Virus record (IMG/VR): IMGVR_UViG_3300045988_071280
Direction: 5' to 3' (one strand)
DNA length: 64,000 nt
Source: a virus
Shown here: piece after piece, positions 5,568-37,676 of the stretch
Layout of the letters: every line of letters begins with the position of its first letter
Numbering within the stretch: position 1 is the first letter of the stretch
Notes under the pieces: model-generated
What the model was told of the DNA's origin: nothing
The model's database searches: none
Seen by the model: the letters and a program-made list of their open reading frames with translations, nothing else
Position numbers and translations under genes: made by a program

Positions 5568-7442
5568 TTATTTAAATGCAGCTGGATTTAATCCTCCAGT
5601 TTGTTGTGTAATTTGATTAGTATTTCTTATTACATTTTCATAATCTAAATTAGATTTAGCTGTTTGAGGAGCAGTTTTTCCAGTAAATAAGATTGACATT
5701 AACTCATCTTGTACAGGTAAGAATATAGAGGATTTATATATATCATCGTCGGATATGAGCCAATATTCTGGAGGTACGTAACCATTAGCTCTCAACATTT
5801 TATTTTCTAGATTAGATCTAACTCTAGCATACATATCTCTAGCCTTATCCTCTAAATCATTATTTAATCTCTTAGTAATACTATTTAATTGAGTTTCCTT
5901 TGCCACTTCTTCTGGAATTAGAGATGGGATAACCATAAATTGATGCATATAAGATAATTGACTTTGTGCTGGTTCTCCGCCTCTAAGTATTAAATGATCT
6001 ACATTATGTGCTCTGTATATATTTAATTTCTGATCTTCTGTAACTGTAGGACCTATAGCAGAAATTTCTCTATCTGCATCTTCTAAACGCTTTAATGCTT
6101 TTAAATCTACTACTTTAGAACCTGTTTTAGGATCTGTTATATATGGTAACCATGTCATCGCTACTCTATCTCCTTCATATAATATCTTACTTAAATCATT
6201 CGGGTTTAAAGTAACTCCAGTTCCAACAGAAGCTCCTGAAATATCTACTAAAGAACCTAATCCTCCGTTAGTAATTATATCAGATAAATAATTCTCATTT
6301 AATACTTCTCCTTTAGCTCCTATTAATGGTCTAATACTAGCTTTAGCATCAAAAGAATATTTATCTCCTACATTTACTACATATTTCTGATTTTTAGGAT
6401 CTGATACATAGCTCATTAGAGGGTTAATATCAGTTAATCCTCCTTTACCTCCAGAACCACTTCCTGATTTACCTTCTATATTCTCATCTTTTAATGATTG
6501 AGAATAAGAATGATCAGTTCCGAAGATTAGGATATTTTTAATACTTTCTATAGCATTTTCTCTAGGATCTCCAGTATTATTAATAGCAGCTCTTGCGATT
6601 AAAGTATTTTTAGATTGTTGGTCTAAATTATTCCATATGTAATTTAAAGCAAGATTAGCATTTTTTCTTTGTGTAGCAACTTCCTCAGTTAATTTAAAAG
6701 TTCCATCAGGAGCGGTATTTAACTTCTCACTTACAATAGCTTGTAATCCTTTTTCTAATTGATTAGCTCTAGCTTTATCAAAGTAATAATCAGAAGATTG
6801 TTTTTCTACTCCTATAGATTTAACAATCTCTTCTATTCGTTTACTTATATCGTTTATATTTAAACTTCCAGCAACCGTTTGAGATAGGCTATTATCAAAT
6901 ATATAAGCTTTACTATTATTCCTTAGAGTTAAGAGATCATTATTAGTTAATACTCTATACTCTTCTCTACTTTCTGAGTATTGATCTGGAGTAATCATAA
7001 CAAGTTCTCCATTAGAGTTTTGTGCGAATAAATTTCCAGAATAATCTATTGCTGCTTCTGAAAGTGTTCCTTTAGATAGTGCGTGTTCTTTTGCTTGATC
7101 AAATATCTGTTTATTATTCTGAATCTCGTTTAATCTAGATACTAATCCTGTATATTGTCTAACGCTAATAGGTTGTCCTAAAAGATCTGTATCAGCAAAG
7201 ATATTACCAACTTGTTCTGCGAAATAATTAACTTCATTAGTTAATCCTTTACCAACCATTTGACCTATAATATCTTTTAACTGTCTCTGAGAATTATCAA
7301 TCTTAGTATCACCAGATTTAGCAGAAGAATTAGCTACAGCTGATGTCCCTTCTTCTCTTCCAATAGGTTGAAAGAAAGGAGAATACCCAACCCACGGGGC
7401 CAGTTGTCCTCCTTCTTGAAATTTTTTAATATTTAACTTCAT
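5568..7442 (-). CDS. virion (ejected/cargo-like) protein, 624 aa
   Basis: Long ORF spaced 1 nt from both neighbours. N-terminus is MKLNIKKFQEGG. It sits in the block of large virion proteins. No domain recognised by eye. Confidence 0.6.
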   Translation of the reverse strand: MKLNIKKFQEGGQLAPWVGYSPFFQPIGREEGTSAVANSSAKSGDTKIDNSQRQLKDIIGQMVGKGLTNEVNYFAEQVGNIFADTDLLGQPISVRQYTGLVSRLNEIQNNKQIFDQAKEHALSKGTLSEAAIDYSGNLFAQNSNGELVMITPDQYSESREEYRVLTNNDLLTLRNNSKAYIFDNSLSQTVAGSLNINDISKRIEEIVKSIGVEKQSSDYYFDKARANQLEKGLQAIVSEKLNTAPDGTFKLTEEVATQRKNANLALNYIWNNLDQQSKNTLIARAAINNTGDPRENAIESIKNILIFGTDHSYSQSLKDENIEGKSGSGSGGKGGLTDINPLMSYVSDPKNQKYVVNVGDKYSFDAKASIRPLIGAKGEVLNENYLSDIITNGGLGSLVDISGASVGTGVTLNPNDLSKILYEGDRVAMTWLPYITDPKTGSKVVDLKALKRLEDADREISAIGPTVTEDQKLNIYRAHNVDHLILRGGEPAQSQLSYMHQFMVIPSLIPEEVAKETQLNSITKRLNNDLEDKARDMYARVRSNLENKMLRANGYVPPEYWLISDDDIYKSSIFLPVQDELMSILFTGKTAPQTAKSNLDYENVIRNTNQITQQTGGLNPAAFK

Positions 7443-7443
7443 A

Positions 7444-10400
7444 TTATTTCTTAATTATTCCTCCGAATCTAAATACTTTAGGATATTGTCCAGATAATCC
7501 TAATTTTTGTAAATCTATATTCCTCTTTAATCCTTTAAGTTGTAACTCTTTTTGAGCGTTAATAATATTTTTATATTCTGGATCTAAGAATAATTTAGTA
7601 GGATCTTTCTTATATTCTTCTTTTTGATATAACGCATCTAATCTTCTCTGTAAATCTGATGCAGTAATAGAATCCTCTGTAGATAATCTAGCATTTTTAT
7701 ATTGAGAATCTAAAAGTTGTTCATTTACTTTTCTAGCATTATTTGTATTTATATACTGCTTAGTTTGTTCTGTTACATCATGTAAGAATGTATCCCAGAT
7801 ATTAGCATTTTGTCCTATCTTCTGAGCTTTTAAATTCGCTAAAGTATTTAAATACTCCGTAGTAGCTAAACGATTTCTATTTGCAGCTTCCTCTCTTCTC
7901 ATTAAATTATTAGCATTAACTTGGAATGCTTTTTCTCTAGACTGTTGTATAGCTTGTTCATTTGCTAAATCTCCTTGCAATCTTGCTTCTGCTGCATTTT
8001 TAGCTACTTCTAAATTATATGCTAATTGTCTGTCGGCATCTGAGGTTAGAGGTGTTCTAGTTAATCCTTCTAAATTTGCTGCTTGTTTATAATAAGCTTG
8101 TCTAACTCCTTCATTTCCTTGAATAGAATAATTTAAATCTGTAGGGAGATTTATTAAAGAAGGTCTTAGATTCTTTCTTAGTGTTTTATATATCTTATTA
8201 TTAGCTGCTGTTTTTTGTATAGCAGAAGCTAAAGAAGATATAGTAGTTAGAGGAATACTTCCTAATGACGATTTAGTTGGAAGATAATTTTGAGATTCAA
8301 CATTAGAACCAGTTGAAGATTTAGTGATAGGAGTATTTAAAGAAGGTGTATTCATTGATTTTAAATTAAAATCAAAAGTATTATTATTTAAAACTTCGGA
8401 ATCAATTCTTCTTATTCTAGAAGGCGATTTTCTAGTTACAACAACTTCTTCTAATATGTTAGTAGGTGTAACTCCTCCATCTTGATATTTAATAACTCCT
8501 CCATTTTTAAATTCTTTAACTTTTTTATTTGCTTCAATCCATTCTTTAGAGCCTAATTCATATTTATCTCTTTCTTTAAGAAGTTTATTTCGAATAAAAA
8601 AGTAATCTAAAGTACCTCCATCCTTATGTTTTTTAGGTAATCTATCTCCTACATCTTTACTTTTCTTCTTACTTACTGTTTTCTTTTTAGAGGAATGTTT
8701 AGATGCAGCTTGATATTCTTGAGCATTTATACGTTTTCTTAATGCTGCGTCCTCTTCTGCTTTAATTAAGAGATTTAATATTCTTTCATCGTTTTGATTA
8801 CTAACACTTTCATTCGGAGTTGTAACTATTCTAGATAAATTCTTATTTTCTTCTTTATATCCTAACTCGTTACGTCTTTTTGTTTCCTGACCTTTTAAAT
8901 ATGCTAATTGTCTACGTTTTTTAGCTTCTTCTAGTTTTTGCTTATTTTTGGCTATTTCTGCCTTTCCTTCATCGCTGTAAATATAAATTTTATCTTGTGC
9001 CTTTTTTACATCAGATTTAGTCATTCTACTAGCTCTCCCAGAAGGTTCTGCTAAACGACGCGTTGTTCCGAAAGGTGTAAATTGCATTTGTTCTAGTATA
9101 GAACTATTTAATTCCGCATCTGTAGGTCCTTTTGTTGGATTTACAACATTATGTATTAATTGCTCTTTTTGCTCAAGTATTTCAGATCTAGGAGCTCTTA
9201 AATTAATTTTTCCAGGAACTTTTTCAGTTAATTTTCCATAATATACTACAGTAGGAGCACCTAAAGTTTGTCCGAGATAAATATTATTATCCTCTAATTG
9301 TTTCTGGATATTGCCACGTCTATAATAAGCCTGTTCTGCTACTAATCCTTTCTGGAAGGATGAAAGTTTATTATTCTTAATCTTATCTAAAGTTTCTGGC
9401 GTTAATTCTCTTCCAGCTACTTTAGTTTCTTTTACTTTTCCAACTCCACGTGTGAAAGGATTATACCATTTACCTTTAGGTATTTTTATATTACTTAAAT
9501 CCTCATCAGTTAAATCCGTATATTGAGATTTTAATTTAGTCTTGACAGTAGTTAATTTATCCTCTGTCGACATCTTATTAAATCCCTCTACCTCATTATT
9601 CTTAAATAAAACTTCTTTAGTTTTACCGTTAACATTAACTTCTATAGGTTTAGATAATTCTCCTGCACCAGCTTTTTGAGTATATAACTTCTTCCCAGCA
9701 ACATTTCTACCGATACCCGTTACAGCATTTAATCCATTAGCTAACAATCTCCAGTCATTTATAGTTAATTCTTCTCCTGACATTACTTTACCTAAAGCAG
9801 TAAGAGAAGTTCCTAATCCTAATGCAGTGAATGCTTTACGTAGTATTGGAGCTGCTGTTTTTATTGCTTTAGTTACTTTAGCTCCTTTAGCTATTGTTCC
9901 TAATCCGGGAATTAATGTTGCTGCATCCATTCCTAGATTTAGTATTAAATTTCCAGTATCACTCCATGACCAATCATCGTCACGTTTATAATCAGCAATA
10001 GCAGTAGAAATTGTAGATCCTAATCCCGTTGCAGCTCCCACAGCATTTCCTACTCCTAACGCAGCGGTAGAAGCTAAACCAGCTACATCTAATGCTAATG
10101 CAGTTAAATCTGCTTTATCTGCTGCACTTAATAATTCTCCAGAGAATACGTCTGACATAGAAGCAGATTGTTTATCTTGTAGATCTGAGGAAATTGAATT
10201 TCTTAATATTCCACCTTCTTGATACATTCCTACTCCACTTGGTATATATCCGGTACCTGCATAGTTACTCATTGGAGTATATTTTAATCCTAAAAATGGT
10301 TTAATCTTGTTATCATATAAGCCATATTTAGAATATAAATCAGCCAAAAATTTACTTCCCAAGGTTAAATCTCTCCCTTCAACTGGATTTACATTAAGCT

Positions 10401-11904
10401 TATTTAAATTAATAGAAGAAATTCCTGGATAATTTGATGTCGGACTAAATTGTAAATAACCTTGATTATATTTAAATTCCCCAGGAATTATATCTCCAGT
10501 CTTTTTATTAATAGCATAAATCCCCGTCGATTTATATGGTCTACCACTACTTAGATAACTCTCAACATTCTGAGGATTATTTATTCCAATAAATTCATAA
10601 TCTTCAACAGCTTGATTATCTCCTATATAAGGATTAAAATAATCAATACCATATTCTTCTCCTTCCGGAAGATTTAATAACTTAGCTAATTTATAGTAAG
10701 CATTATAACTCTGTTCTTTATCCCAATCTTTCTTATATTTAATATTCTCAGCATTTTTTCTCCAACTATATACTTCTGGATTATATATATCATTTAAATA
10801 TTTAACATTACTTCCTACATAATCCTTAATCTTTTCATAAGGTATATAATCAGTATCATACCATCCAGATTTTAACATATATGTAGCTGGGTTAGATTCA
10901 AACGGAAAATAGCCTCTTAATCCCACAAGATTCCCAGAAGAATCTTTTTCTCTTAATCCTTCTTTAGTGACTACTATATTTTTTCCGTTAAAATTATAAC
11001 TTAGAGGAGCATTTTCTGGTAGATTATTTGTTTTCCTTATTTCATCCTCTTCTTTCTTAATCTGTTCTTCGGATTTAGTAGATCCTTGAGTAGAAGAATT
11101 TTGTTGGTTTGAATCTCCAAAAATATATTTCCATATATAATCACCAAAACGCTGATTATTCTTCTGTTCTTCCCAATCAAATTCTGAATTAGGATCCCCA
11201 TTTCTACCTTGAGATAAATCTTCTATAAATTGATCGTACTCCTGTATAGATTTAAAAGGAAGATTCTCATATCCCTTAAATGGAGTTTTATCTTCTGATG
11301 ATAAATACTCATAAAATCTTCTTCTATTATTTTCTAAAGCCCTAATTACATCATCAATCCTTTCAGAAGTATTTTTCCTATTATATACTTCCTGATTAAT
11401 CTTTCCTCCCCATACGGAATTAATTAATTCTCTAGGATTCCATGACACATCTATTTTATCAGGTTCTTGTAAAGTATTAGAATATTCAGTGAGATTTAAA
11501 AAGTTATTATCTATAGCTTTAGCTAAATAATCACTACTATATTTATCACCTAAATTAAATCCTTCTGAGTTGTTATATTTAATATCAAATCCACTTGGAG
11601 TACTATTAATCTCTTGTATATCACCTTTACTTAGAGCATCTAAAAATCTATTATAAGAAGCATCTACTCCAGATCCTCTTCTTCTATAAGAGTTTTTTAA
11701 ATTTCGGGAGTCATCAGAACTAACCCAATTCTGGAGTTTTTCTTTAGCTTCTTTTATATCGTATTTTTTACCGTTAATAGTAATTGTCTTTGTTTCCTGC
11801 TCTTTTTTATTATAAAGGTCTTGTAATTTTTGCTTCCTTTTATTATATTCTTCTATATTTGAAGGAGATTTACCTCCAGTTTCAAATTTAGGAACTTGTG
11901 CCAT
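7444..11904 (-). CDS. very large internal/ejection or tape-measure-like virion protein, 1486 aa
   Basis: 1486-aa ORF with a central Gly/Ala-rich hydrophobic block (LALDVAGLASTAALGVGNAVGAATGLG...) and long K/E-rich coiled regions. The x-x-G-G motif recurs (KFETGG, MYQEGG, HKDGG, FKNGG, KYQDGG, FRFGG). Confidence 0.6.
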   Translation of the reverse strand: MAQVPKFETGGKSPSNIEEYNKRKQKLQDLYNKKEQETKTITINGKKYDIKEAKEKLQNWVSSDDSRNLKNSYRRRGSGVDASYNRFLDALSKGDIQEINSTPSGFDIKYNNSEGFNLGDKYSSDYLAKAIDNNFLNLTEYSNTLQEPDKIDVSWNPRELINSVWGGKINQEVYNRKNTSERIDDVIRALENNRRRFYEYLSSEDKTPFKGYENLPFKSIQEYDQFIEDLSQGRNGDPNSEFDWEEQKNNQRFGDYIWKYIFGDSNQQNSSTQGSTKSEEQIKKEEDEIRKTNNLPENAPLSYNFNGKNIVVTKEGLREKDSSGNLVGLRGYFPFESNPATYMLKSGWYDTDYIPYEKIKDYVGSNVKYLNDIYNPEVYSWRKNAENIKYKKDWDKEQSYNAYYKLAKLLNLPEGEEYGIDYFNPYIGDNQAVEDYEFIGINNPQNVESYLSSGRPYKSTGIYAINKKTGDIIPGEFKYNQGYLQFSPTSNYPGISSINLNKLNVNPVEGRDLTLGSKFLADLYSKYGLYDNKIKPFLGLKYTPMSNYAGTGYIPSGVGMYQEGGILRNSISSDLQDKQSASMSDVFSGELLSAADKADLTALALDVAGLASTAALGVGNAVGAATGLGSTISTAIADYKRDDDWSWSDTGNLILNLGMDAATLIPGLGTIAKGAKVTKAIKTAAPILRKAFTALGLGTSLTALGKVMSGEELTINDWRLLANGLNAVTGIGRNVAGKKLYTQKAGAGELSKPIEVNVNGKTKEVLFKNNEVEGFNKMSTEDKLTTVKTKLKSQYTDLTDEDLSNIKIPKGKWYNPFTRGVGKVKETKVAGRELTPETLDKIKNNKLSSFQKGLVAEQAYYRRGNIQKQLEDNNIYLGQTLGAPTVVYYGKLTEKVPGKINLRAPRSEILEQKEQLIHNVVNPTKGPTDAELNSSILEQMQFTPFGTTRRLAEPSGRASRMTKSDVKKAQDKIYIYSDEGKAEIAKNKQKLEEAKKRRQLAYLKGQETKRRNELGYKEENKNLSRIVTTPNESVSNQNDERILNLLIKAEEDAALRKRINAQEYQAASKHSSKKKTVSKKKSKDVGDRLPKKHKDGGTLDYFFIRNKLLKERDKYELGSKEWIEANKKVKEFKNGGVIKYQDGGVTPTNILEEVVVTRKSPSRIRRIDSEVLNNNTFDFNLKSMNTPSLNTPITKSSTGSNVESQNYLPTKSSLGSIPLTTISSLASAIQKTAANNKIYKTLRKNLRPSLINLPTDLNYSIQGNEGVRQAYYKQAANLEGLTRTPLTSDADRQLAYNLEVAKNAAEARLQGDLANEQAIQQSREKAFQVNANNLMRREEAANRNRLATTEYLNTLANLKAQKIGQNANIWDTFLHDVTEQTKQYINTNNARKVNEQLLDSQYKNARLSTEDSITASDLQRRLDALYQKEEYKKDPTKLFLDPEYKNIINAQKELQLKGLKRNIDLQKLGLSGQYPKVFRFGGIIKK

Positions 11905-11920
11905 AGTTAATGATTAAAGT

Positions 11921-11955
11921 AAAAAAATGGAGTATTATATTTAAATAATACCCCA
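11921..11955 (-). terminator. rho-independent terminator
   Basis: On the minus strand, a hairpin TGGGGTATTAT-loop-ATAATACTCCA is followed by T7. It lies just downstream of the 11967-12245 gene. Confidence 0.6.
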
Positions 11956-11966
11956 TCTAAGATAAT

Positions 11967-12245
11967 TTATTGTCTTTTCTTTACTACTAATTTTCCTCCT
12001 CGACGCGCCATTACAGGCTCAGTAGGAGCTTCTGCTTGAGCAGCTTGTCCCTGAGTCATTTCGACTAACGCTGAACATACCGCCAATGCAGCTTGACAAT
12101 CCTGATTTTGAGTTGCCTGAGCAGCTAATTGAAGAATTTGTTGAAAGATTTGTTCTGGACTAGGTTGAGCCTGAGTAGCAGGTTCCGCGGGCATAGTTCC
12201 GCCCTCTTGTAAGATTTTTACTTTAAATTTTTCGTTTACTTTCAT
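11967..12245 (-). CDS. small virion-associated protein, 92 aa
   Basis: ORF with a leader ending in ILQEGG, an A/Q-rich core and a basic C-terminus. It has its own promoter-like motif upstream and a terminator downstream. Confidence 0.55.
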   Translation of the reverse strand: MKVNEKFKVKILQEGGTMPAEPATQAQPSPEQIFQQILQLAAQATQNQDCQAALAVCSALVEMTQGQAAQAEAPTEPVMARRGGKLVVKKRQ

Positions 12246-12273
12246 TTCTTTAATATTTAACGTTAAACTTGTA

Positions 12274-12281
12274 CAAAGTTA
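12274..12281 (-). promoter_or_regulatory. Bacteroidota-type -7 promoter element (TAnnTTTG)
   Basis: The minus strand reads TAACTTTG about 29 nt upstream of the ATG at 12245, inside a 150-nt intergenic gap. Confidence 0.35.
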
Positions 12282-12394
12282 GGATTTTGTATATAAAAAT
12301 CCTATTGTTTGGTAGTATTTAATAATTCTGAATTATTTACCACCTTTTGAACCTTTACCTTTAGATTTGCTTTTAGATTTACAAGCCATAATGT

Positions 12395-12967
12395 TTAGGA
12401 TTTAAATTTGTTAGATATATATGTATTTACCTCATCTATTCTATTTAACCATCCTTTTAAAAATTTACTTTGAGAAGGTTTTCTATCTACTATTGATTGA
12501 TAATATTCTTTTCTTTGGGAAATAAATTCTTGAAGCAGATTTTTAGAATTGCATAAATTCGCTAATCTAATTGTAGTTGGTCCAATTTTCCCATCTATAT
12601 CTAAGGATTGTCCTAAATTTGAAATAGCTTTTTGAAGGCATTTAACACCATTAGAAACACCAGCATTAACGGAATGGTCTAATAGATGGGCTGAGATATA
12701 AATGTTGCTTATATCATCTATTTTACATTTATCATAAAAATTATCTTTATAGAATTGTTCTACTAAATCTTCTAATTCTTTAACTGTTGTTATAATCTGT
12801 CCTCTTTTTAATGGTTTAAATTTATCAATAATCCTCCATCCTTCCCATTTAGGGAAATTAGCACGGGATATTCCACAATATGTCTCCTTCCCGGAGTCGT
12901 CGGGGTCAAATACATAACCTCCCTCGTTTTTTAGGATCATTGATATAAGAATGTGGGATTTATTCAT
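12395..12967 (-). CDS. GH108-family lysozyme (muramidase) with C-terminal PG_binding_3-like domain
   Basis: The N-terminal segment LKNEGGYVFDPDDSGKETYCGIS matches the GH108 signature (EGG-Y-x-D-x-D-x-G-x-T-x-x-GI). The 190-aa size and the C-terminal half are typical of GH108 plus a peptidoglycan-binding module. Confidence 0.75.
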   Translation of the reverse strand: MNKSHILISMILKNEGGYVFDPDDSGKETYCGISRANFPKWEGWRIIDKFKPLKRGQIITTVKELEDLVEQFYKDNFYDKCKIDDISNIYISAHLLDHSVNAGVSNGVKCLQKAISNLGQSLDIDGKIGPTTIRLANLCNSKNLLQEFISQRKEYYQSIVDRKPSQSKFLKGWLNRIDEVNTYISNKFKS

Positions 12968-12988
12968 TTAAATATATATTTATTAATA

Positions 12989-13660
12989 TTATTTAGTCTT
13001 TACATATTCCGGATCATTATTATCCTGAATTTTCATGTATTTAAATACAGACTTACCTAATCTCTTATATGCGGAATCTGTTTTTAATTTCTCTGCTTTT
13101 TTAGCTTGGCGAATTAAGACTCTAGTATTCTTCCTAGAAAATATTCTCTCTCCACCTTTTATTTTATACTGTACTTTACCGTTAGTAGAAAGTATCTCCA
13201 ATAAATCTTCTAAATCATCAATATCATTCTCTATCTTGTCTTTAGGAGATTCATCCTCTAAATCTTCTAAATAATCTAATTTTTCTTCAAGTACTTCATC
13301 TAATCCCTCAAACTCTACACTTTCTCCAGATCGAATTCCGGAATTATTAGATACCTCTAATACGAATAATACATTCTTTTCAGATATAATACTTGTATCA
13401 TTAGGTTTCCCTTCTTTATTAGATATTACTTTAAATTCTGGAGAGATGAAGATTATATCTAAATATAAAGGAGTATCTTTCATCCAATAATTTACTTCTT
13501 CTTGTACTTCTGGATATATAAATAGAAGCCCTTGATTTTTAGATAAACTTTCTATATGCATAAATCCATGTTCTCTTTCCCAGTCATCTATAGCAGTATC
13601 ACAGAGGTATTCTTTATTATGTACTTTAACTTTTACAATTGATTTTTTTAATTCTGACAT
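12989..13660 (-). CDS. DUF192-domain protein with acidic/basic C-terminal extension
   Basis: The pattern EREHGFMH...QGLLFIYPE...NYWMKDTPLYLDIIFIS...FVLEV...G...GESVEF follows the DUF192 (COG1430) consensus. Confidence 0.65.
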   Translation of the reverse strand: MSELKKSIVKVKVHNKEYLCDTAIDDWEREHGFMHIESLSKNQGLLFIYPEVQEEVNYWMKDTPLYLDIIFISPEFKVISNKEGKPNDTSIISEKNVLFVLEVSNNSGIRSGESVEFEGLDEVLEEKLDYLEDLEDESPKDKIENDIDDLEDLLEILSTNGKVQYKIKGGERIFSRKNTRVLIRQAKKAEKLKTDSAYKRLGKSVFKYMKIQDNNDPEYVKTK

Positions 13661-13669
13661 AATTATATA

Positions 13670-14482
13670 TTATTTAAAATAAGGATCCTCATCATCAGCA
13701 TAATAATTCTTCATGTTATCTCTTAACAAATAAGATCCTACTTTGGGATTAAATTTAATATCTTCTCTAATTTCCAAGGATTTTTCTCTTTTAGGAATAG
13801 TGTATTTTCCTGTAACTATAGAAGGAAAGTCGTATGTATCATTTACTTTGATAGTATTATTATCCTTATCCCATTGAATGGTAAAATTCCCGAAAAGATC
13901 TAATCCTGTTGCAAAATGCTGATTCTTATCCGGACGTTCTATATATTTAACAGTTAATCCTTCATTAACTACTTTCGGCTCTCCAGATTCTAGTACCTCT
14001 TTTCCAGTTCTATATATTTTTTCTAATCTAGATTTACTAGGTAATTCTGGAAATTTTTCTATATATTTATCATAATTACGTAGAATTTTACCTACATTTA
14101 AGGTATCTACCATAGATTGTACTCTACGGGCTACAGGTTGTGGGATTCCTACATATTCAGTATTTTTAGGATCTTTATCTTTGTCAGCATTTATCCTAGC
14201 TTTGGAAGATTTTATTAATCTCGAATCCTTTCCTAAATTTAAATAATGTTTAAAGAAAGCCTCTTCAATAGGAGTTGCTAATTCCCTTTCTTCTCGGATT
14301 GGAACTGGAGTATTAGTATAATTTAAATATGGAAGACGTATGTAATAAGGAGCACTCCAATAACCATCAGCTGGATTGAGAAAATTATATACTCTCTCTG
14401 CTTGAGTTTGTTTTATATTACTTTTTCCTCCATTCTGATACTTTTGTATTAAATAAGAATTTACTCTATTTAAATTTAACAT
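13670..14482 (-). CDS. virion protein, 270 aa
   Basis: ORF in the structural operon. Its N-terminal leader ends in QKYQNGG. Confidence 0.5.
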   Translation of the reverse strand: MLNLNRVNSYLIQKYQNGGKSNIKQTQAERVYNFLNPADGYWSAPYYIRLPYLNYTNTPVPIREERELATPIEEAFFKHYLNLGKDSRLIKSSKARINADKDKDPKNTEYVGIPQPVARRVQSMVDTLNVGKILRNYDKYIEKFPELPSKSRLEKIYRTGKEVLESGEPKVVNEGLTVKYIERPDKNQHFATGLDLFGNFTIQWDKDNNTIKVNDTYDFPSIVTGKYTIPKREKSLEIREDIKFNPKVGSYLLRDNMKNYYADDEDPYFK

Positions 14483-14502
14483 AGCATTATATATAAAAGG
14501 CT

Positions 14503-14540
14503 ATATTTAAATAGAATATATTTCAATTCTATTTAAATAT
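14503..14540 (-). terminator. AT-rich 15-bp hairpin, possible terminator/attenuator
   Basis: ATATTTAAATAGAAT-loop-ATTCTATTTAAATAT lies directly downstream of the stop at 14548. The trailing T-run is weak. Confidence 0.35.
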
Positions 14541-14547
14541 ACCTACA

Positions 14548-15747
14548 TTATTCAGTTTCTTTAATTACTTTACCCTTATCGATAGTATTATGTAATATCT
14601 CCTTAACTAGTAACTTTCCTGCCTCAATAGCAGCTTCATCAGTATCTTCTTTATATAATTCCTCTAATTTCTCAGTGACTTCTAATCTAAGAATCAACTC
14701 TTCCCGTTCTATTTCCGCTACTTGAGATATCTTATCCCCTTCCTTTAATATAACAGGAATACCTTTTCTAGATATATCTTCTGTATCTAAATGATGAAGT
14801 TCTTTATGTAATTTACCTTCTGGAATTATATTCTTTTCTCCAATCTTACCACCATCTTTATATTTAAGGATATTTTTCTGAGATTTAGCATATTTAATTC
14901 TAAAAGATTCTAGGAATTTAAATCCATCTCTTCCGAATCGGATATTATTTAATCCTCCCGATTGTTCTAGTTGTAATTTATTTGCGAACATATCAGAAGA
15001 ACTTGCTGCTCTTGCTGATTTATCTGATGCATCTGTTAAGATATCATCTATAGTATCTTGATATCCCTGAGCTTTATCCATTTTTCTATTAGCTTTTTTT
15101 CTAGCTTTACTAGAATATAAACCATATTTTTTTCCACTTAATGTTCCAGCATCCGAAATAAATTTACCAGTTCCGGTATAAGAAGAGTTGTTCGCTATAT
15201 TTTGATCTACAGTAAATGTTCTAGATTTTTTTCCGCCGAAATTATTAATCATTGCTGCTGGAGTAAGAGAAAGTAATTTACTCCCAAGAATAGCATCTGA
15301 TTTAGTCATAGCATCATTATAATTACCAAATTTACTTATAATATCAGATACAAGACCACCAACTTTCATAATTCCTCCTACTAAAGGATTTATCATCATT
15401 ACTATATTAGAAGCAGAATCAAATGCTTTATCTCCAGCTTTTTTTAAATCCGCATATTTTCCTGTAGGTTCTTTTCTTCCTATAAGAGTAGAAGTAATAT
15501 CTGCTGCTTGTCCTATAATATTCCCAGTAGATGCCGATTTACTTATTCCAGAATTATTATTTAAATTAGCACTAGCTACTGTACCTTTAAACTTATTCCA
15601 TCCTCTACCTAAAGCTCCGGATCCGGTTTTTCCTAAAGTAGCATTTTGTAATGCCATTGTATTTAATTTAAGAGGTTCGCTAGCACTAACTGCACCAATT
15701 AATGGTTCGCTTGATGTGAGTACTCCTCCAATATTAAATTTTTTCAT
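14548..15747 (-). CDS. virion protein, 399 aa
   Basis: ORF with leader MKKFNIGG, a Gly/Ser/Ala-rich N-terminal half, an internal KYKDGG and an acidic C-terminal part. Confidence 0.5.
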   Translation of the reverse strand: MKKFNIGGVLTSSEPLIGAVSASEPLKLNTMALQNATLGKTGSGALGRGWNKFKGTVASANLNNNSGISKSASTGNIIGQAADITSTLIGRKEPTGKYADLKKAGDKAFDSASNIVMMINPLVGGIMKVGGLVSDIISKFGNYNDAMTKSDAILGSKLLSLTPAAMINNFGGKKSRTFTVDQNIANNSSYTGTGKFISDAGTLSGKKYGLYSSKARKKANRKMDKAQGYQDTIDDILTDASDKSARAASSSDMFANKLQLEQSGGLNNIRFGRDGFKFLESFRIKYAKSQKNILKYKDGGKIGEKNIIPEGKLHKELHHLDTEDISRKGIPVILKEGDKISQVAEIEREELILRLEVTEKLEELYKEDTDEAAIEAGKLLVKEILHNTIDKGKVIKETE

Positions 15748-15757: not shown

Positions 15758-18700
15758 TTAACAAAAACTTATTTCAAACATTGTTTGTAATGCGGTAATA
15801 ATAACTCTCTTATCTCCACTATATTTAACTCTAATCTTTATATACTTATCTCTAGGTCTAGTTTCTTCAATTTTTAATTTAATATTCCCTTTACTCCCTC
15901 TTTGATATTTAAAAGGTTCTAAAGTTACATTAACAAAATCTTCTTGATATCTAGTATTACCTTTAATAATACCACAAGTAGACATATCCTTAATAGGTTG
16001 AATTCTTCTTAAACTATACTCAGATAATCTATCGTCATAAAATATAATAGCAGAACTTCCGATGTTATTATTATTACAATCTTTATTATCAATGAATTTT
16101 ATATAATTATCTACTTCATTTTCTTCTTTCTCTCCCTTTTGTACTAAATATGAACCTTCTTTTAAATCTGGGACGTTAGAGAAATCATAAGCATCACCAA
16201 TTACTTCAAATGAGACTAATTCTGGGAGGACATTATTTGAGATGATAAAGAGATTTGTGAAAACTTTATGGTATCCAACATTTTTATTTACAACAAATTC
16301 GAATTCAAATGGGTCATATGATAGAGGTACTCCTTTTGAATCTCGCTCTTTATACCATGAAGTTGGGTAGATTTTTTCTTTGTTGTCAAATATTCCAGCT
16401 ACTCCGTGTCTCCAGAAATAAGTAGGATTTTCCCAATATTCCTCAGATGTTCTTAAATATACAATATCATTATATCTATTACTAACATCTACTCCAATTT
16501 CTTCTATATTATCAGTTATTGATTCATTTCTTCCTCTAACTAATTCTGCCTGTATATTTAAAGAATAGTATATGGAAGATATATCAATATCTTCTCCTTT
16601 ACTATATTTATTTCTTATATTAGAGTCTGATGATTTTAAAACTAGATAAGTTGTAATATTCTTAATATTATCAGATGTACCTTCTTCATATGTAACTAAT
16701 TTAAAATCATCATTATCTGGATAATCTTCCGAATTATTAAAACTGTATTTAGAATATTTAATTCTGAATTTATCAGAGTCTAAATTTAATTTAATATGTA
16801 ACTTCCCTATAATAATATCTTTAGTTATTCCAGAATTTATTAAATTAGGAATCTCTACTCCGGAATAATTAACCCTTAATTTAGAATTATTTGGATCTTC
16901 TAAATTATATTTAGATAATATATTAGTATATTTATTATCTTCAAAAACACTTCCTAAAACTATTCCGTAAGAACTCTTAGAATTTTTCCAAGAAGAGGCT
17001 ACTCTAGAAGTAGATTTAGAATCTTCCTTATTACTAGAAAAGTATACGTTAGAAATATTTTCTGACATTAATGGAATCCACGAATATCTTGTTGTCCATA
17101 ATTGTAACTTCTCATTATAACATAGATTCCACTCTTTAGATGTTATCAGTTCTCCTACATTGTTGCTTTCTTTAACATCATCATAGAATGTAAACATTAC
17201 ATCAAATTTAAATTTGTTATAATGAGTTTTTACATTTCTAACTCCAACAAGAGGTTCTCTTTCTCTTTCTAGTAAAGAAATATTATCATTTAAATATTTT
17301 TGTATCTTAAAGTCCGAAATTACTTCAAAAGTTCTTCCATTAGTTCTCCATATTTTCTTAGCTATAGTATCTACCCCATAAACAAAATTATCCGTTCTCA
17401 ATATAGAATCTTTCCACTGAGAACCATACATTTTAGATAATAAAATTGGACGTTCTGGAAGAACATTGTTAGAATTTAAATATACAGGATTATTTAATTC
17501 TCCAGCTGTTTGAATTCTTTCGTTTACAGGAATTAATCCAGTTCCTCTTTCGAATACAACAATTAAATTTCCGAACCATTCTACAATTGAGGTTATATTA
17601 CCATATTCATGATTATAATCTTTATAATTATTTAACTGAAATACTCTATATGAATTTTTATATGCATCTGATATAAATATATCTGAATACATTATTCTAT
17701 TTGAAAACTCATTTTTTATATAAGGAACATCTGGAACGACAAAATGATATTTATCAGAAGTAGAACTATTTAATCCTGAATTATATAAAGTACTTTCTGG
17801 AATTTTATATTCTCCAGAAGTATTAAATCTAGATATAGGATAGAATGTTCTAGGATGTCCATTGAGTGCAACTTCTGATACATTTGTTTCATCTTCACAT
17901 CGTAATGCAAAATTTATATTAGACGCACAATTAAATGTAACCCAATGTCCAATTCCCACTGCATTAACATCTCCTCTATTTATTAATTCCGCTTTTTCTA
18001 AATCAAGAGCTCCAGTATCAGATCCGGAATAATTATTTTCCCATGTATTAGGATCTACTATAGTATCATTAGTTGGACTTTCAGGATCTTGAAAATTTCT
18101 ACACATTCTATGAGTAAAGCTCCCATAATAACAATCTCCTCTATAACATATCATAGAATCGTTAGTATATTCCCAAGCTTGTCGATCTGAAATAGAGTAA
18201 TATGAAGATAAATCACTAAATCTAGATTTAAAATAATCCTTCATTAAGGATTCATTATATCCAGGAATCATTACCTCAAATATCCTACAATTTCCAATAA
18301 TTCCCTCAGTTCCTACATAAGGACCCCAAGACCCTCGTAAAAGATTTTTAGCTGTTCTACTAGTATCTTCTTTATAAAAATATTTAAATTTATAAGCAAC
18401 TTCTGCTTCTCCAGCTCTAGATGAGAAATCAGTAGTTCCAGATGTTTTTAATTGTATATTATCATCTATATATGTAAGACTTACATCTTTTATAGTAGAT
18501 ATATCTGAAGTAGTATTATCTTTATATCCATCTATATAATAATGTCTTTCATTATTTCCTTGAATAAAATATTTTTTGTTTGACTGTATAGAAGATTCCC
18601 TACATACAAATTTAGATCCATTAAATATTTGAGAGTAAAATTCTGAGTTTAATTCTGCTTCTGGAATTATAGAAGCATAAGATGTAGCAAAAGTTGTTGT

Positions 18701-20644
18701 TAATACTCTATCAGGATAATCGCTAGTTAGAATACTTTTTCCATTATTATTTGCAATAAAAGATTCTGTAAAATATATAGTATCCTCAATTGGAAGTACC
18801 GGAAGATGAGAAAAGGATTCTAAACCAATTGTGATTCCTTGACAATATACAGTTGGCACTCGCTTTTGTCTAACAAAGAAAAATCCTTTAGTATATTTTT
18901 TTAATTCTTCTATAACTTTTGGTTGAAATTTAAATTTAATTCCTAAAGGAAGATAATTATTTCCTTCGTCAAGAGCACTACTTTCAGAAGATCTTTTCAA
19001 TCTAACTACTCCTCTAGCATTTGAAAGTACGACACTATCTCCAGAAATAAACCCTTCTTCATTTACTTCTATGTAAGATCTTATCTTCTCTCCAAAAGTA
19101 TTTTCTTTATATATTTCAAATTCTTCAAATTCAGAATTATTTCTTAAGTCTCCCCCTCTTATATTAAATACTGGAGAAAGAGTATAATCATTTAATATAT
19201 AAACAATTCCAAATCTATAAATATCTTCCCAATATCCTAATCTATAATATATATTATATGGGTTGTAATATCCTCCTTGATTAAGAGAGTTTGTAGAAGT
19301 ACCATACATTTTATATTCAGCATCTACTCTACCAATAGAGTCTTCTGAATATATTTCGGGACAAATTCGTAAAGATAAATCAGCTAATTCTTTATATGGA
19401 ACAGTTACTTTATCAATATTACCTAAAAATAATCTATTCTGAACTTGAGCTTGGGTTTTAGCTTTATCTATTATATTATAAGAAATATTTATATCATTAA
19501 GACTAATTTCAGAAACTGGCTCTAAACCAACTATAGTTATATCACAAATAGTATTTATTACTACATATTTATCCTCTATTTTATATGCTTTAGTAATCTC
19601 TGTTCCATTTTCAGTTCCAGTACATCTTGTATAATAAATACTTATATAATTATAAGAGGTGTCTATATTAGATAGTAAGAATTTAATTAATTTATGAGAA
19701 TTTGTATCATATAATCCACCTTTTATAGTTTTAGCATCATCTAAATCTCCTAAGAATACTGAAACAATTCCACTTTCAGAAACAAAATCTGTTTCATTTC
19801 CATCAGAATCTACATATTTAAAATAAAATACATAATTACCAACTTTCAACTCTCCTCCACTTTGTACTCCTTTAAATTCGAGAATTGGAATTTGATTTAT
19901 AGACTTATATAAATTAACTTCCCCGTTTAAAGAATCTTCATCATAGATATTTGTGTCATTATTTCCTTCTCTATCTACTACTTTATACATTCCGTTTTCT
20001 AAAGGAGTAAATCTAGAATTTATTAGTCTAGGAGTATTTAAATCATCATTTAATATTAGATTAACTGAACCATCATAAGATTCTTGTATCTCTATATCTA
20101 TAGGGTGATTTAAATCAAAATTAAGATCTTTTGTAGTAAAATCTACTAACTCTCCTTTATAATTAGATATAATAAATTTTTCATCTCCATTATTTATACT
20201 TACTTCTTCATTATCAAAGTTTAAAGGATTTAATCCAAATACTTCTCTGGGAGTATATTTTTTTAATGGGGAAGATAAAGTAGATGTTGTATAATTATAC
20301 TTATTATCAATATCACCTGGTTGAGTTTCACTTATTACATATTGAGTATCTATATTTTCTTCTGTAATATATATTGTAATAGGTTTAGAGAATTCTACAG
20401 TATAGTTGGTATCTGAATTTTTTTTATACTTTAAAACTTCTAAAATATCTAAAGTTGCTTCTATATTTTGATTGGAAGATTTTAATAAATATCTTCCACT
20501 AACATCATTTTTTAAATATCTATTACCAGAAATCCTTAAATTACGAAAAGGATTATATTCATAAGCTAAAAATCCTTCTGTTTGAATTACTTTATAATAA
20601 ATATTAAACTTAATATCAAATGGTACTGATATAAAACTCTTCAT
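15758..20644 (-). CDS. very large tail structural protein, 1628 aa
   Basis: Uninterrupted 4.9-kb ORF spaced 1 nt from the upstream 1240-aa ORF. Composition is rich in beta-formers (N/Y/S/T). The position matches the tail hub/muzzle genes of crAss-like phages (inference). Confidence 0.6.
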   Translation of the reverse strand: MKSFISVPFDIKFNIYYKVIQTEGFLAYEYNPFRNLRISGNRYLKNDVSGRYLLKSSNQNIEATLDILEVLKYKKNSDTNYTVEFSKPITIYITEENIDTQYVISETQPGDIDNKYNYTTSTLSSPLKKYTPREVFGLNPLNFDNEEVSINNGDEKFIISNYKGELVDFTTKDLNFDLNHPIDIEIQESYDGSVNLILNDDLNTPRLINSRFTPLENGMYKVVDREGNNDTNIYDEDSLNGEVNLYKSINQIPILEFKGVQSGGELKVGNYVFYFKYVDSDGNETDFVSESGIVSVFLGDLDDAKTIKGGLYDTNSHKLIKFLLSNIDTSYNYISIYYTRCTGTENGTEITKAYKIEDKYVVINTICDITIVGLEPVSEISLNDINISYNIIDKAKTQAQVQNRLFLGNIDKVTVPYKELADLSLRICPEIYSEDSIGRVDAEYKMYGTSTNSLNQGGYYNPYNIYYRLGYWEDIYRFGIVYILNDYTLSPVFNIRGGDLRNNSEFEEFEIYKENTFGEKIRSYIEVNEEGFISGDSVVLSNARGVVRLKRSSESSALDEGNNYLPLGIKFKFQPKVIEELKKYTKGFFFVRQKRVPTVYCQGITIGLESFSHLPVLPIEDTIYFTESFIANNNGKSILTSDYPDRVLTTTFATSYASIIPEAELNSEFYSQIFNGSKFVCRESSIQSNKKYFIQGNNERHYYIDGYKDNTTSDISTIKDVSLTYIDDNIQLKTSGTTDFSSRAGEAEVAYKFKYFYKEDTSRTAKNLLRGSWGPYVGTEGIIGNCRIFEVMIPGYNESLMKDYFKSRFSDLSSYYSISDRQAWEYTNDSMICYRGDCYYGSFTHRMCRNFQDPESPTNDTIVDPNTWENNYSGSDTGALDLEKAELINRGDVNAVGIGHWVTFNCASNINFALRCEDETNVSEVALNGHPRTFYPISRFNTSGEYKIPESTLYNSGLNSSTSDKYHFVVPDVPYIKNEFSNRIMYSDIFISDAYKNSYRVFQLNNYKDYNHEYGNITSIVEWFGNLIVVFERGTGLIPVNERIQTAGELNNPVYLNSNNVLPERPILLSKMYGSQWKDSILRTDNFVYGVDTIAKKIWRTNGRTFEVISDFKIQKYLNDNISLLEREREPLVGVRNVKTHYNKFKFDVMFTFYDDVKESNNVGELITSKEWNLCYNEKLQLWTTRYSWIPLMSENISNVYFSSNKEDSKSTSRVASSWKNSKSSYGIVLGSVFEDNKYTNILSKYNLEDPNNSKLRVNYSGVEIPNLINSGITKDIIIGKLHIKLNLDSDKFRIKYSKYSFNNSEDYPDNDDFKLVTYEEGTSDNIKNITTYLVLKSSDSNIRNKYSKGEDIDISSIYYSLNIQAELVRGRNESITDNIEEIGVDVSNRYNDIVYLRTSEEYWENPTYFWRHGVAGIFDNKEKIYPTSWYKERDSKGVPLSYDPFEFEFVVNKNVGYHKVFTNLFIISNNVLPELVSFEVIGDAYDFSNVPDLKEGSYLVQKGEKEENEVDNYIKFIDNKDCNNNNIGSSAIIFYDDRLSEYSLRRIQPIKDMSTCGIIKGNTRYQEDFVNVTLEPFKYQRGSKGNIKLKIEETRPRDKYIKIRVKYSGDKRVIITALQTMFEISFC

Positions 20645-29967: not shown

Positions 29968-30275
29968 CGTATTTTTCTTATATTTTCATATAAGCCAGAC
30001 TATATCATTAACTTATATTCTATTACCGTCTATAAGTTACCTCCCGTTTCCATATTTAACAATATGTACTCTACTCATTTATTCTCTAATATATTTCTTA
30101 TTAGATATATTTTCGATAGTCGTTGAACTTTGAATAAATATTTAAATAATATTTAAGCCTTAGCTGCTGATTAACATGTAGTAATTAATATGGACAATAC
30201 TATTTAGCCTTCCAGCAATTAGAGAGGTTTAATTTTTCTACATATCACTATGTAGCGGCGCTAGAGGAGTAGTTA
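29968..30275 (-). mobile_element. group I intron (P/Q/R/S family), ORF-less, 308 nt
   Basis: Minus-strand core elements: P AATTGCTGG (30212-30220), Q AATCAGCAGC (30163-30172), R GTTCAACGACTA (30117-30128), S GATATAGTC (29998-30006). P1 pairs exon GGCGU with AGCGCC and carries a U.G. A P2 hairpin CTACAT/ATGTAG follows. The omega-G is at 29968. Confidence 0.8.
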
Positions 30276-30760
30276 ACGCCAATTACATCAGTTTTTATCA
30301 TATCACAGCCTTTGAATGTCCAAGATTCAATAGCTGGTTTTCCGTTAGCTAAATCCGGAGTAAGATCTAGAATAAATCCAAATGCTTGATCAGGATATTC
30401 TATATTTAAAGCCTTATCCGGCATAAAGGTTATCGTATTACCTTGATATTCATAGCTAACAAAAGTATTACCTACTTTAATACCATCAACCGTTTCACCT
30501 ACTTTCTTCTTAACACCAGAAGATTTACTATACATCAAAGTAGCAGTAGGAGTCCATTTTCCAATTTCATCCATTAAGTTATCACCAACCTGATTCCAAA
30601 GTAAAGAGTTACAGATTAATACATAATCATTGCCAGTTAAATTCTTTGCCTTAGAGGTTAAGAAACTTAATGCTTCTTTGAAGTGTGAAGTAAGTAATTG
30701 ATCGAAAGAGATTAAGTATGCGTATCTTTCTATTTGAGGAATAATTCCATCGCCTATATA
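30276..30760 (-). CDS. major capsid protein (putative), exon 4 of 5
   Basis: Corresponds to track ORF 30248-30763, which needs a GTG pseudo-start. The exon is 485 nt, starts in phase 0 (YIGDGIIPQ...) and ends ...KTDVIGV with GT open. The ORF tail YSSSAAT* is read-through into the intron. Confidence 0.75.
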
Positions 30761-32127: not shown

Positions 32128-32408
32128 AGGTCTCTGCGTTTGCGGGTCCACGATTGTAGCTTTCCCGTTGGCATCCACGTTACTGCGTGCCCAAAGATCG
32201 TGTTTAGCTTTAACTTCTAAGAAATTCTCAATAAGAGTCTTTTCCATTGAAGTCATAGTAAACAATTTTTCACTTCCTTTAGTTTCCGTATCACTAATTT
32301 TCAAGAATACATCTTCATTAGCTAAATAAGCTTGAGATGCATCAATATCATTTCTATGTAAAGTCAAGTAATTACGATGAACCTCCATATTAGATTGATA
32401 TTTTGTAG
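32128..32408 (-). CDS. major capsid protein (putative), exon 3 of 5
   Basis: Corresponds to track ORF 32101-32388. The exon is 281 nt, CT + 93 codons, encoding (S)TKYQSNMEVHRNY...DPQTQRP. The ORF tail GTFNKRLC* is intron read-through. Confidence 0.75.
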
Positions 32409-32639
32409 CGTTAGTACTTTATATCACTATAAAGATTAGACTATATCTTAATCTTATTATATAAGATCTTCTCTGCTTCGGAATTAAATATTCCTACTCC
32501 ATATTGGATAGTCGTTGAACGTTCTATATTGTATTTAAATACTCATATAGCTTCGCTGCTGATTGTCTTTAAATAAGATGTTCCAGCAATTCAGAGAATG
32601 TTTCAATATTTATTACTAAATAAAGGGGCCTACAATTTA
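32409..32639 (-). mobile_element. group I intron (P/Q/R/S family), ORF-less, 231 nt
   Basis: Core elements: P 32583-32591, Q 32555-32564, R 32509-32520, S 32439-32447. P1 pairs exon GGGU with GCCC. P2 is TATTTA-GTAA-TAAATA. The omega-G is at 32409. Confidence 0.8.
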
Positions 32640-32929
32640 ACCCAAAGTCGTGATAATCAAACGGATGAGCATTTGATAAGAAGTGAGTAGTCATACCCGG
32701 CTGACATGCGGAAGTATCCAAATATGACTGATAATCATTATCAATCAATCGAACAGTATATTCATAGAATTTATTACTCCTCCAAATTGGACGAGAAGTA
32801 ACATAACACTGTTGATGTGATTTATCTATTACAAAAATATCATGTTTATCATAGTATTTTTCCTTAAACAGCATCTTAATTTCTGTCCCTCCAATTCCAT
32901 CACCTTCGGGAACAGCGTAAAAAGGAATA
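32640..32929 (-). CDS. major capsid protein (putative), exon 2 of 5
   Basis: Corresponds to track ORF 32569-32874, and the frame stays open 18 codons further upstream. The exon is 290 nt: 1 + 96 codons + 1, encoding IPFYAVPEGDGIGGTEIKMLFKEK...HPFDYHDFG. Confidence 0.7.
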
Positions 32930-37672: not shown

Positions 37673-37676
37673 ATTT

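Follow-up and report, generated by a model that had tools for sequence, protein, structure and literature searches.

A 64,000-nucleotide stretch of viral DNA (IMG/VR record IMGVR_UViG_3300045988_071280, one strand; hereafter the window) contains, at positions 5,568–15,747, a block of genes in which five predicted proteins begin with basic leaders of 8–19 amino acids (aa) ending in the pattern K-Phi-Q-x-G-G, with F, L, Y or M at Phi. Here 'tag' refers to this Gly-Gly-ended element, whether at the N-terminus of a protein, inside it or near its C-terminus. The five tagged genes are placed between the gene for a 1628-aa protein and a giant open reading frame (ORF) that runs off the window edge. 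Downstream of the 1628-aa protein gene, the products are, in order, a 399-aa protein, a 270-aa protein, a DUF192 protein, a GH108 lysozyme, and proteins of 92, 1486 and 624 aa (Table 1). The initial annotation described the five tagged genes as consecutive; they do lie in one block, but the untagged DUF192 and lysozyme genes intervene. The N-termini it read were recovered exactly, all on the minus strand, as were all the internal copies it listed in the 1486- and 399-aa proteins, and to these a C-terminal variant in the 92-aa protein is added. Each of the five ATGs is the first possible start of its ORF, and orthologues align from Met1.

The 1628-aa protein matches the crassvirus muzzle (Pfam crAss_MUZ PF25731, E = 2.6e-26), and two genes upstream of the muzzle gene match crassvirus tail ring proteins. 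A megablast search of GenBank phages with the block as query found none that matched; the nearest GenBank phage records are two unannotated human-faecal metagenomic scaffolds, with a muzzle identity of ~41% by tblastn, and the major capsid protein of the window's clade is ~22% identical to those of classified Crassvirales. Because of the muzzle and ring matches, the distant GenBank relatives and the low capsid identity, the window is assigned by these comparisons to a divergent crAss-like phage. Its G+C content is ~29%, and nearly all of its genes lie on the minus strand.

Conservation was examined in 80 fetched loci with muzzle homologues 38–84% identical (the comparison is counted as 82 loci), in which ORFs were clustered into families and a tag was counted when it lay inside the first 30 aa. 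Gene order is alike in the 82 loci. The tag is present in 69/69 members of the 92-aa family, 50/50 of the 624-aa family, 17/17 of the 270-aa family and 16/16 of the 1486-aa family, as well as in 33 of 52 members of another giant-protein cluster, which forms one family with that of the 1486-aa protein by profile-profile comparison. The canonical N-terminal form is found in only 39 of 82 members of the 399-aa family, encoded by the first gene after the muzzle gene, and the rest have variants such as KFQWGN, ILKGQAG and IAKARFG. Ten families of capsid, ring, tail and muzzle proteins (~800 proteins) have no tag at all, and it is also absent from homing-endonuclease genes inserted in the block.

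When the 624-aa protein was used in a library-wide search, 710 representatives of 50%-identity clusters were obtained. Among the best 150 of these, 130 are single-module relatives, mutually <50% identical, and the tag is kept in 110. Most of the 20 exceptions have near-variants (KKQQGG, KHQSGG) or begin right after the tag, the latter suggesting mis-called starts. For the 1486-aa protein, the N-terminal tag is kept in 8 of 9 very divergent homologues aligned.

A complete relative of 117 kb, MT835470, encodes tagged proteins outside the block too. Its 275-aa protein is very basic, starts MATKFQQGG and has internal FKCGGxAKKRIKK repeats. Its 981-aa glucosaminidase, also encoded outside the cargo block, starts MKVIPKLQQGN and contains SFKAGGIIKYQ. 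Both look like internal or ejected proteins. A 125-aa protein of this phage has a variant tag. The loose pattern matched six further N-termini in MT835470; one, of a nucleotidyltransferase ('FYEVGG'), was set aside as unrelated and the others as non-canonical.

Profile-profile comparison (hhalign) found no homology between the tagged families. The best inter-family alignments are the tags themselves; the 92- and 624-aa families (families 9 and 12) align over residues 1–17 only, with E = 2.6e-5. At the level of sequence profiles, the tag is the sole element common to otherwise unrelated families.

Table 1 Genes of the block, its borders and the copies of the tag in the window
Feature	Position	Strand	Remarks
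Muzzle (tail gatekeeper) gene	15758..20644	-	Upstream edge of the putative cargo block; tag in 0/83 orthologues
399-aa protein	14548..15747	-	ORF; first gene after muzzle; family of >2105 members, no Pfam domain or name
N-terminal tag MKKFNIGG, aa 1-8, 399-aa protein	15724..15747	-	Next residue V
YKDGG (KYKDGG aa 295-300), 399-aa protein	14848..14862	-	Context ILKYKDGGKIG; precedes conserved C-terminal domain IPEG.LH..H...KGIPV
270-aa protein	13670..14482	-	Accessory cargo candidate; present in 17/82 loci
N-terminal tag MLNLNRVNSYLIQKYQNGG, aa 1-19, 270-aa protein	14426..14482	-	Next residue K
DUF192 protein	12989..13660	-	Pfam PF02643, E 5.8e-15; untagged, inside block; in 75/82 loci
GH108 lysozyme with PG_binding_3 domain	12395..12967	-	Pfam PF05838, E 2.4e-19; untagged, inside block
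92-aa protein	11967..12245	-	ORF; Pro/Ala-rich; tag at both ends
N-terminal tag MKVNEKFKVKILQEGG, aa 1-16, 92-aa protein	12198..12245	-	Next residue T
C-terminal variant PVMARRGGKLV, aa 77-87, 92-aa protein	11985..12017	-	Orthologues have EPVYRRGGRLV or EPVYKKGGKLV at the same place
1486-aa giant protein	7444..11904	-	Gly/Ala-rich hydrophobic segments; N-terminal tag and five more copies
N-terminal tag MAQVPKFETGG, aa 1-11, 1486-aa protein	11872..11904	-	Next residue K
YQEGG (MYQEGG aa 560-565), 1486-aa protein	10210..10224	-	Homologues at the same position: KLQAGG, YFQQGG, NQWGG
HKDGG, aa 1093-1097, 1486-aa protein	8614..8628	-	Aligns with RRSLGG, KKANGG, RRQDGG in homologues
Tandem FKNGG (aa 1132-1136) and KYQDGG (aa 1139-1144), 1486-aa protein	8473..8511	-	
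C-terminal FRFGG, aa 1478-1482, 1486-aa protein	7459..7473	-	Four residues from the end
624-aa protein	5568..7442	-	Putative cargo; last gene before giant ORF
N-terminal tag MKLNIKKFQEGG, aa 1-12, 624-aa protein	7407..7442	-	Next residue Q
Giant ORF, at least 1855 aa	1..5566	-	Runs off window edge; starts MDNLEKKDWF; N-terminal tag absent

The N-terminal consensus across relatives is [I/V]-[K/R]-K-[F/L/Y/M]-Q-x-G-G. Relative to Phi, K stands at −1 in 60, Q at +1 in 59 and I/V/M at −3 in 60 of 75 N-terminal copies. The 72 distinct leaders are 8–26 aa long (median 13) with a net charge of about +2. Hydrophobic residues occur at −7, −3 and 0 relative to the aromatic, the last two being −8 (86%) and −5 (100%) from the putative cleavage point. 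N-terminal copies are conserved up to GG but not beyond it, except that proline often follows three or four residues on.

The glycines of the tag are written with all four Gly codons across relatives, and in lineages that have recoded the stop codon TAG, the conserved Gln of the tag itself is often spelled TAG. Because of this synonymous variation of the glycine codons and the recoded Gln, selection on the tag is judged from the sequences to act at the peptide level, not on DNA or RNA. Reading TAG as Gln is needed for intact ORFs in loci L087–L101, L104, L114 (cr113_1) and L002 (MT835492), and L103 needs TGA read as Trp.

Similar gene starts might also be due to chance, to amino-acid composition or to a signal in the nucleotides, e.g. 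a translation-initiation element common to neighboring genes, since AT-rich genomes often begin genes with Lys-rich codons. When each window protein was shuffled, [FYLWM]xxGG within the first 20 residues appeared in 0.78 proteins per window on average, whereas it is found in five of the 54 real proteins, exactly the tagged ones, and at least five were reached in 4 of 5000 trials. The five proteins contain the motif 3.8 times per 1000 aa, against 0.94 times elsewhere (Fisher p = 8e-4). The cross-genome conservation, complete in four families and nil in ten control families, is far stronger evidence than the in-window statistics. A nucleotide-level signal is also at odds with the codon variation and with the internal and C-terminal copies. 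Chance or a nucleotide-level signal is excluded. Three other matches were set aside as unrelated: 'KNEGGY' in the lysozyme, an ordinary GH108 motif; 'IGSGGIG' in a transmembrane family; and a hydrophobic 'GGxMKxGG' segment conserved in the 399-aa family.

Structures were predicted for two of the proteins. The AlphaFold2 model of the 270-aa protein (predicted local distance difference test score, pLDDT, 86; predicted template modeling score 0.82) has a helix at residues 4–16, low confidence at GG and then a compact fold. This model has no match in the PDB; its BFVD matches come from crAss phage cr131_1 (an uncharacterised protein) and from a podovirus (a 990-aa 'lysozyme' fusion). In the model of the 399-aa protein (mean pLDDT 49.8), residues 1–91 are disordered and the motif region is unconfident; a PDB search with the sequence of this protein found no match. 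In these models the tag resembles a short helix with a Gly-Gly cap, followed by modules that fold independently or are disordered.

Such an arrangement could be a passive hinge or helix cap with no specific partner, Gly-Gly being a favored linker between modules, as GG falls between the predicted helix and the next module and proline often lies within three or four residues. However, a generic linker would not conserve K at −1, Q at +1 and I/V at −3 across unrelated families, would not be restricted to the cargo block, and would not need the extreme N-terminus. We regard the hinge as very improbable.

Internal copies are conserved in position as well. Very divergent members of the giant family can be aligned at the N-terminal, middle, 'HKDGG' and C-terminal copies alike. 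The C-terminal FRFGG aligns with YTYAKGGRLT, TYANGGKIS and KYAKGGTI in homologues that extend ~65 residues beyond, and the tandem form F-K-x-G-G-I-I-K-Y-Q recurs in the tagged glucosaminidase of MT835470. In the 399-aa family, the internal copy is nearly universal as x-K-F-K-x-G-G-K-x-N, the linker to the C-terminal domain is variable in length, and some members end in ...QEGGKL. C-terminal copies stop two to ten residues before the stop codon.

Fifteen representatives of ~1150–1275 aa carry a 624-like module as their C-terminal half. In all 15, the junction carries a tag that directly adjoins the module's conserved start (e.g. ..HPKSKKYQQGG|VAPFT..). One of the fusions joins the end of a giant-family protein to a 624-like module; in the window the genes for both are adjacent, with a 1-nucleotide gap. 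Because fusion junctions keep the tag and because a module shared by two other proteins (gp45 and P0133, below) is flanked likewise, a gene boundary and an internal tag appear to be interchangeable, with tags flanking shuffled modules. By sequence comparison, the tag belongs specifically to the block that follows the muzzle gene, and it sits where modules meet.

The position of the block can be compared with that of characterized cargo genes. In the Bacteroides phage crAss001, the genes after the muzzle gene encode the cargo proteins C1 (gp45) and C2 (gp46) and giant virion RNA-polymerase proteins, all of which are kept in head and tail until the phage ejects them into its host (Bayfield et al. 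2023, PMC10172136). By position, from the muzzle gene to the giant ORF, the window block agrees with the crassvirus cargo families, but by sequence it does not: no homology of the window families to gp45 or gp46 was found by BLASTP, by hhalign (probabilities ≤2.1%) or with a 130-sequence profile. Two resemblances, of 'IPEGALHA' to gp45 'FINEGGSHE' in the portal-binding domain and of the K-F-Q...P-F-x-x-Y start of the 624-aa protein to gp46 'KFRPFSY', were dropped for want of profile homology.

The sole sequence link to gp45 and gp46 is a gp45 module present in P0133, a relative of the 270-aa protein. The N-terminus of gp45 reads MAKKKIKRRGKMPPNIFDTGG, and more Phi-x-x-G-G copies lie inside the protein; its residues 12–37 are MPPNIFDTGGQSWGQQSSGQFSNAFK, and residues 241–268 span AFAEGG|GLSR. 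P0133 starts MKYNIEKLQKGG and continues with a module 66% identical to gp45 residues 262–344 (E = 5e-28). The module is N-terminal in P0133 and internal in gp45, where it comes after AFAEGG, and another GG motif follows it in both.

In crAss001, DAC15, cr116_1, phi14:2 and three Suoliviridae, a related N-terminus, in which Phi-x-x-G(G) comes after a basic run, is found only on C1, the product of the first gene after the muzzle gene (e.g. NIFDTGG, QYLLGG, KKYVGGG and KYELGS). C1 carries internal copies too, including a strict IQKFQDGG in cr113_1, and C2 and the polymerase proteins of the compared crassviruses have no tag. Judged by these sequences, a weak tag on C1 is order-wide, and the strict tag on many proteins is a trait of the window's clade.

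Two observations concern crAss001 proteins. Its major capsid protein starts MAGKLGKFQMLG, with a K-F-Q-x-x-G resemblance that is probably due to chance. A 99-aa protein of MT835470 (locus L112, 17051–17353, +; ..KNRGKFTASAKKAG..TPLQKKRANFARNAASW) resembles, by eye, gp45 residues ~380–423, which lie just upstream of the portal-bound domain, and may be a further gp45 module that has a small gene to itself.

In crAss001, gp45 has its N-terminal part toward the tail exit (PMC10172136), and N-terminal tags would therefore emerge first. This orientation suits a host-directed short linear motif, by which a host factor of the envelope or cytoplasm binds emerging chains and ratchets them out of the tail or anchors them in the cell envelope, like colicin Tol/Ton boxes. 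The tagged proteins are all inferred to be ejected, and their tags fall in linkers or disordered stretches and recur along the long chains, as would also be expected of such a motif. However, no host protein suggests itself as the partner, the tag does not resemble known Tol/Ton boxes, it persists in phages that probably infect different hosts, including lineages with different genetic codes, and a host-directed role would leave the entry of the proteins into the particle unexplained. We consider it quite unlikely.

Another possibility is that the tag serves maturation cleavage only: the cargo would be a polyprotein-like array, in which a phage or host protease cuts after every Gly-Gly, removing the leaders of separately encoded proteins and splitting long ones into modules, with no addressing role. 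In favor are the internal tags conserved in position in very divergent giant-protein homologues, the tag kept at all fusion junctions with gene boundaries exchangeable for tags, the module shared by P0133 and gp45 that is GG-flanked on both sides in both proteins, and the N-terminal conservation that sits upstream and falls right after GG. GG|X processing of virion core proteins is also known in eukaryotic viruses, by adenain in adenovirus and by pS273R in African swine fever virus among others, and poxvirus I7 cuts at AG|X.

No protease has come to light for such cleavage. The statement in the initial annotation that none is recognisable in the window holds, as Pfam and PHROGs detected no peptidase family there except Peptidase_S74 tail-fibre chaperone domains. 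In MT835470, no peptidase family was found in the structural half or among the 25 of 32 families listed for the replication half, and C39, CE-clan and prohead types were found neither in the window nor in the listed MT835470 families. crAss001 gp66 (L003 43493–44008; L115 19306–20820 is also cited), a membrane-anchored retropepsin-like protein of the replication module (PF13650, E = 9e-7), was tried as a candidate and rejected, having no homologue in the window or MT835470. The crAss001 structure paper mentions no motif, cleavage, protease or processing (PMC10172136). Besides, trimming an 8-residue leader has no obvious purpose while leaders are kept in 85–100% of homologues, and cleavage at C-terminal copies would free peptides of just 2–10 residues.

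Published matrix-assisted laser desorption/ionization (MALDI) peak lists of a crAss001 virion gel were re-analysed (PMC6235969 supplement); they cover ten bands of ~58 kDa and above, the three lowest-mass bands lying outside. Bands 3–9 were assigned to gp50/47, gp49, gp20, gp26/22, gp22/25, gp25 and gp23. gp45 (90.8 kDa), which is about equimolar with the portal (Bayfield et al., PMC10172136), never rose above decoy in the ten bands, whereas the portal of the same size was clear. This gives a weak hint that gp45 may not be full length in virions, as cleavage would have it. On the other hand, no post-GG semi-tryptic masses of gp45 were matched in these bands, the relevant low-mass bands being outside the data covered. 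Overall, cleavage as the only role is a serious alternative that we nevertheless hold to be doubtful.

Cleavage and loading could also be combined, the cargo being a polyprotein-like array in which every module is tag-prefixed and cut by a maturation protease of unknown family, while the tag also loads the proteins; this we find unlikely. If it were true, the single gp45 chain spanning head and tail in crAss001 would need revision; the experimentally resolved gp45 segments, 214–245 and 425–552, each lie within one GG-delimited module. The only positional candidate for the protease would then be the DUF192 protein, which is likewise the sole positional candidate for a reader of the tag or a processing enzyme in general. 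No function for it was obtained from DUF192 literature or PDB entries. The protein has no signal peptide and has a conserved C-terminal extension (..PDGSTQMELxGGERIFSRKNTKxLIKxAKKA..DYKALGK..EPEYV), of which the '..LxGGERIF..' segment is not a canonical tag.

The initial annotation likened the leaders to two known systems, and neither likeness is sustained. Double-glycine leaders processed by C39 peptidases are 15–30 aa long, acidic or amphipathic, with hydrophobic residues at −4, −7 and −12 (LSxxELxxIxGG), and belong to small secreted peptides with a cognate exporter. The tag is alike in being an N-terminal leader that ends in Gly-Gly. However, its leaders are basic and can be as short as 8 aa, the hydrophobic residues stand at −5 and −8, the proteins are of 92–1486 aa, the motif recurs internally, and a C39 peptidase/ABC exporter was not found by Pfam or PHROGs in the window or among the listed MT835470 families. 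Hence motif register, leader charge and length, and enzyme all disagree.

In the CE-clan GG|X systems, Gly-Gly motifs stand at N-terminal, internal and C-terminal places on several internal proteins, very basic ones included, and in this the tag is similar. The adenain consensus is (M/I/L)-X-G-G|X, with the hydrophobic residue at P4. In the tag, by contrast, two residues always separate Phi from GG, which puts Phi at P5, with Lys at P6 and Gln at P4 in 59 of 75 copies, and no C5, C57, C63 or C48 protease was found in the window or listed MT835470 families. What stands of the earlier idea is that of a Gly-Gly leader as a functional signal on virion cargo, which is supported by gene position, by conservation on unrelated families and by absence from capsid and tail proteins; the named analogies do not stand.

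We propose, with an even chance of being right as judged from sequence and analogy, that the element is a modular tag by which a single common partner recognises cargo, i.e. a loading or docking signal for which cleavage is optional. One common reader is the simplest inference. The basic leader, probably an amphipathic helix, would prefix each module of proteins that are stored in the head and tail lumen and ejected, and would be read by one partner in the assembling particle, which might be the scaffold, the inner surface of the capsid, the portal or the tail lumen. N-terminal copies would address each separately encoded cargo protein into the particle, and internal or C-terminal copies would give long, largely unfolded proteins extra attachment points. 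Binding to the partner would cause incorporation, as with the capsid-targeting sequence (CTS) of T4 or the encapsulin loading peptide. As in T4, the protein might then be cut after Gly-Gly, though the proposal holds without this.

Such an addressing role is favored for four reasons. First, separately encoded proteins keep the leader nearly always, which cleavage alone does not explain. Second, the C-terminal copies look like complete binding units (Phi-x-x-G-G-x-Phi) better than cleavage sites. Third, no protease is recognisable in the window or the related genome. Fourth, there are two precedents.

The T4 leader is ~10 aa long, ends in L/I-x-E and is cut by the prohead protease gp21. It is shared by the unrelated packaged and injected proteins IPI, IPII, IPIII and Alt, as the tag is shared by unrelated families; its terminal motif recurs inside other core proteins, as the tag has conserved internal and C-terminal copies; and the genes are neighbors in both cases. 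The differences are that there is no sequence similarity, that no prohead protease (gp21-, HK97/U35/S78-like) was found in the window or listed MT835470 families and no scaffolding core is recognisable, and that the tag also occurs at extreme C-termini and module junctions, in a podovirus-like phage with cargo in head and tail. The diverse T4 internal proteins share only the CTS, which loads the prohead and can load foreign proteins (PMC3012670); the tag is likened to it from sequence alone. By this analogy, T4 CTS/gp21 seems the closest functional counterpart of the tag, which is not a member of that system.

Encapsulin loading peptides are terminal, common to unrelated cargo, dock inside an HK97-fold shell, can be repeated in disordered regions (family 2) and are not cleaved. 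The tag is alike in being a conserved terminal peptide common to unrelated cargo proteins. However, the encapsulin consensus is Gly/Ser/Leu-rich and usually C-terminal, with the shell protein itself as the receptor, whereas the tag belongs to an infectious virus that later ejects its cargo, and candidate receptors would be the portal, tail rings or scaffold.

Several points weigh against the loading signal. Packaging of the window's five proteins is deduced from gene position and the module shared with a proven cargo protein, and the partner that reads the tag is hypothetical. The canonical N-terminal form is kept by less than half of the first-gene orthologues. The giant ORF next to the block, which corresponds by position to crassvirus giant virion RNA-polymerase-associated genes and would be expected to be packaged, has no N-terminal tag, nor have any of the 29 members of its family (family 14). 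Tags at fusion junctions, swaps of gene boundaries for tags and two-sided flanking are together the classical signature of polyprotein cleavage, and fit cleavage at least equally well. Finally, the failure to detect gp45 in the gel bands weakly hints that it is not full length. As a separate observation, the giant ORF has weak P-loop/AAA-like matches around residues 1594–1784 and holds two internal Phi-x-x-GGKS matches.

Among the viruses of the human gut, crassviruses are the most abundant. Their cargo amounts to ~5.5 MDa according to the crAss001 structure paper, which does not explain how it is selected and loaded (PMC10172136), and crassvirus ejection proteins were still counted as unresolved in a 2026 paper. 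What is new here is a simple sequence label common to the cargo proteins of a large, deeply diverged clade; no description of it was found in the literature searched. The tag would open cargo loading to direct testing, since tag-reporter fusions and tag mutants become possible for both loading and maturation proteolysis. It predicts packaged proteins from sequence alone, including the glucosaminidase and the very basic, possibly DNA-associated protein. It is also a defined peptide to seek in unassigned cryo-electron microscopy densities. One of these is at the crAss001 muzzle, where six copies of a 14-residue cargo fragment containing a helix are bound (PMC10172136); the fragment could possibly relate to the tag. 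If portable, the tag might become a handle for delivering engineered proteins into Bacteroidota.

Other parts of the window show features of their own. At 36902–40180 (−), five adjacent genes share another leader (MSKDFLTLKDA, MAEFITELDN, MAEFLTEDNL, MAEYLTVDDR and MSKEFITIDQA), and three ~100-aa paralogues among them share a C-terminal Phi-x-x-GGKD (ELYSGGKD, TFSLGGKD and TFILGGKD). These elements may represent a common attachment domain of fibre or appendage proteins. The 791- and 2144-aa proteins (40278–42653 and 45930–52364, −) end in Peptidase_S74 intramolecular-chaperone domains and are probably tail fibres or spikes.

At 30248–35527 and 56114–61724 (−), the genes for the major capsid protein, portal and large terminase seem to be interrupted by homing-endonuclease genes, which are NUMOD1/GIY-YIG-like at 30815–31897 and 32977–34053 and of the LAGLIDADG type at 59221–60108. 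The PHROG portal and terminase families each match two separate window ORFs. This suggests introns or inteins in core virion genes. Upstream of the capsid gene, an acidic protein is encoded at 34460–35527.

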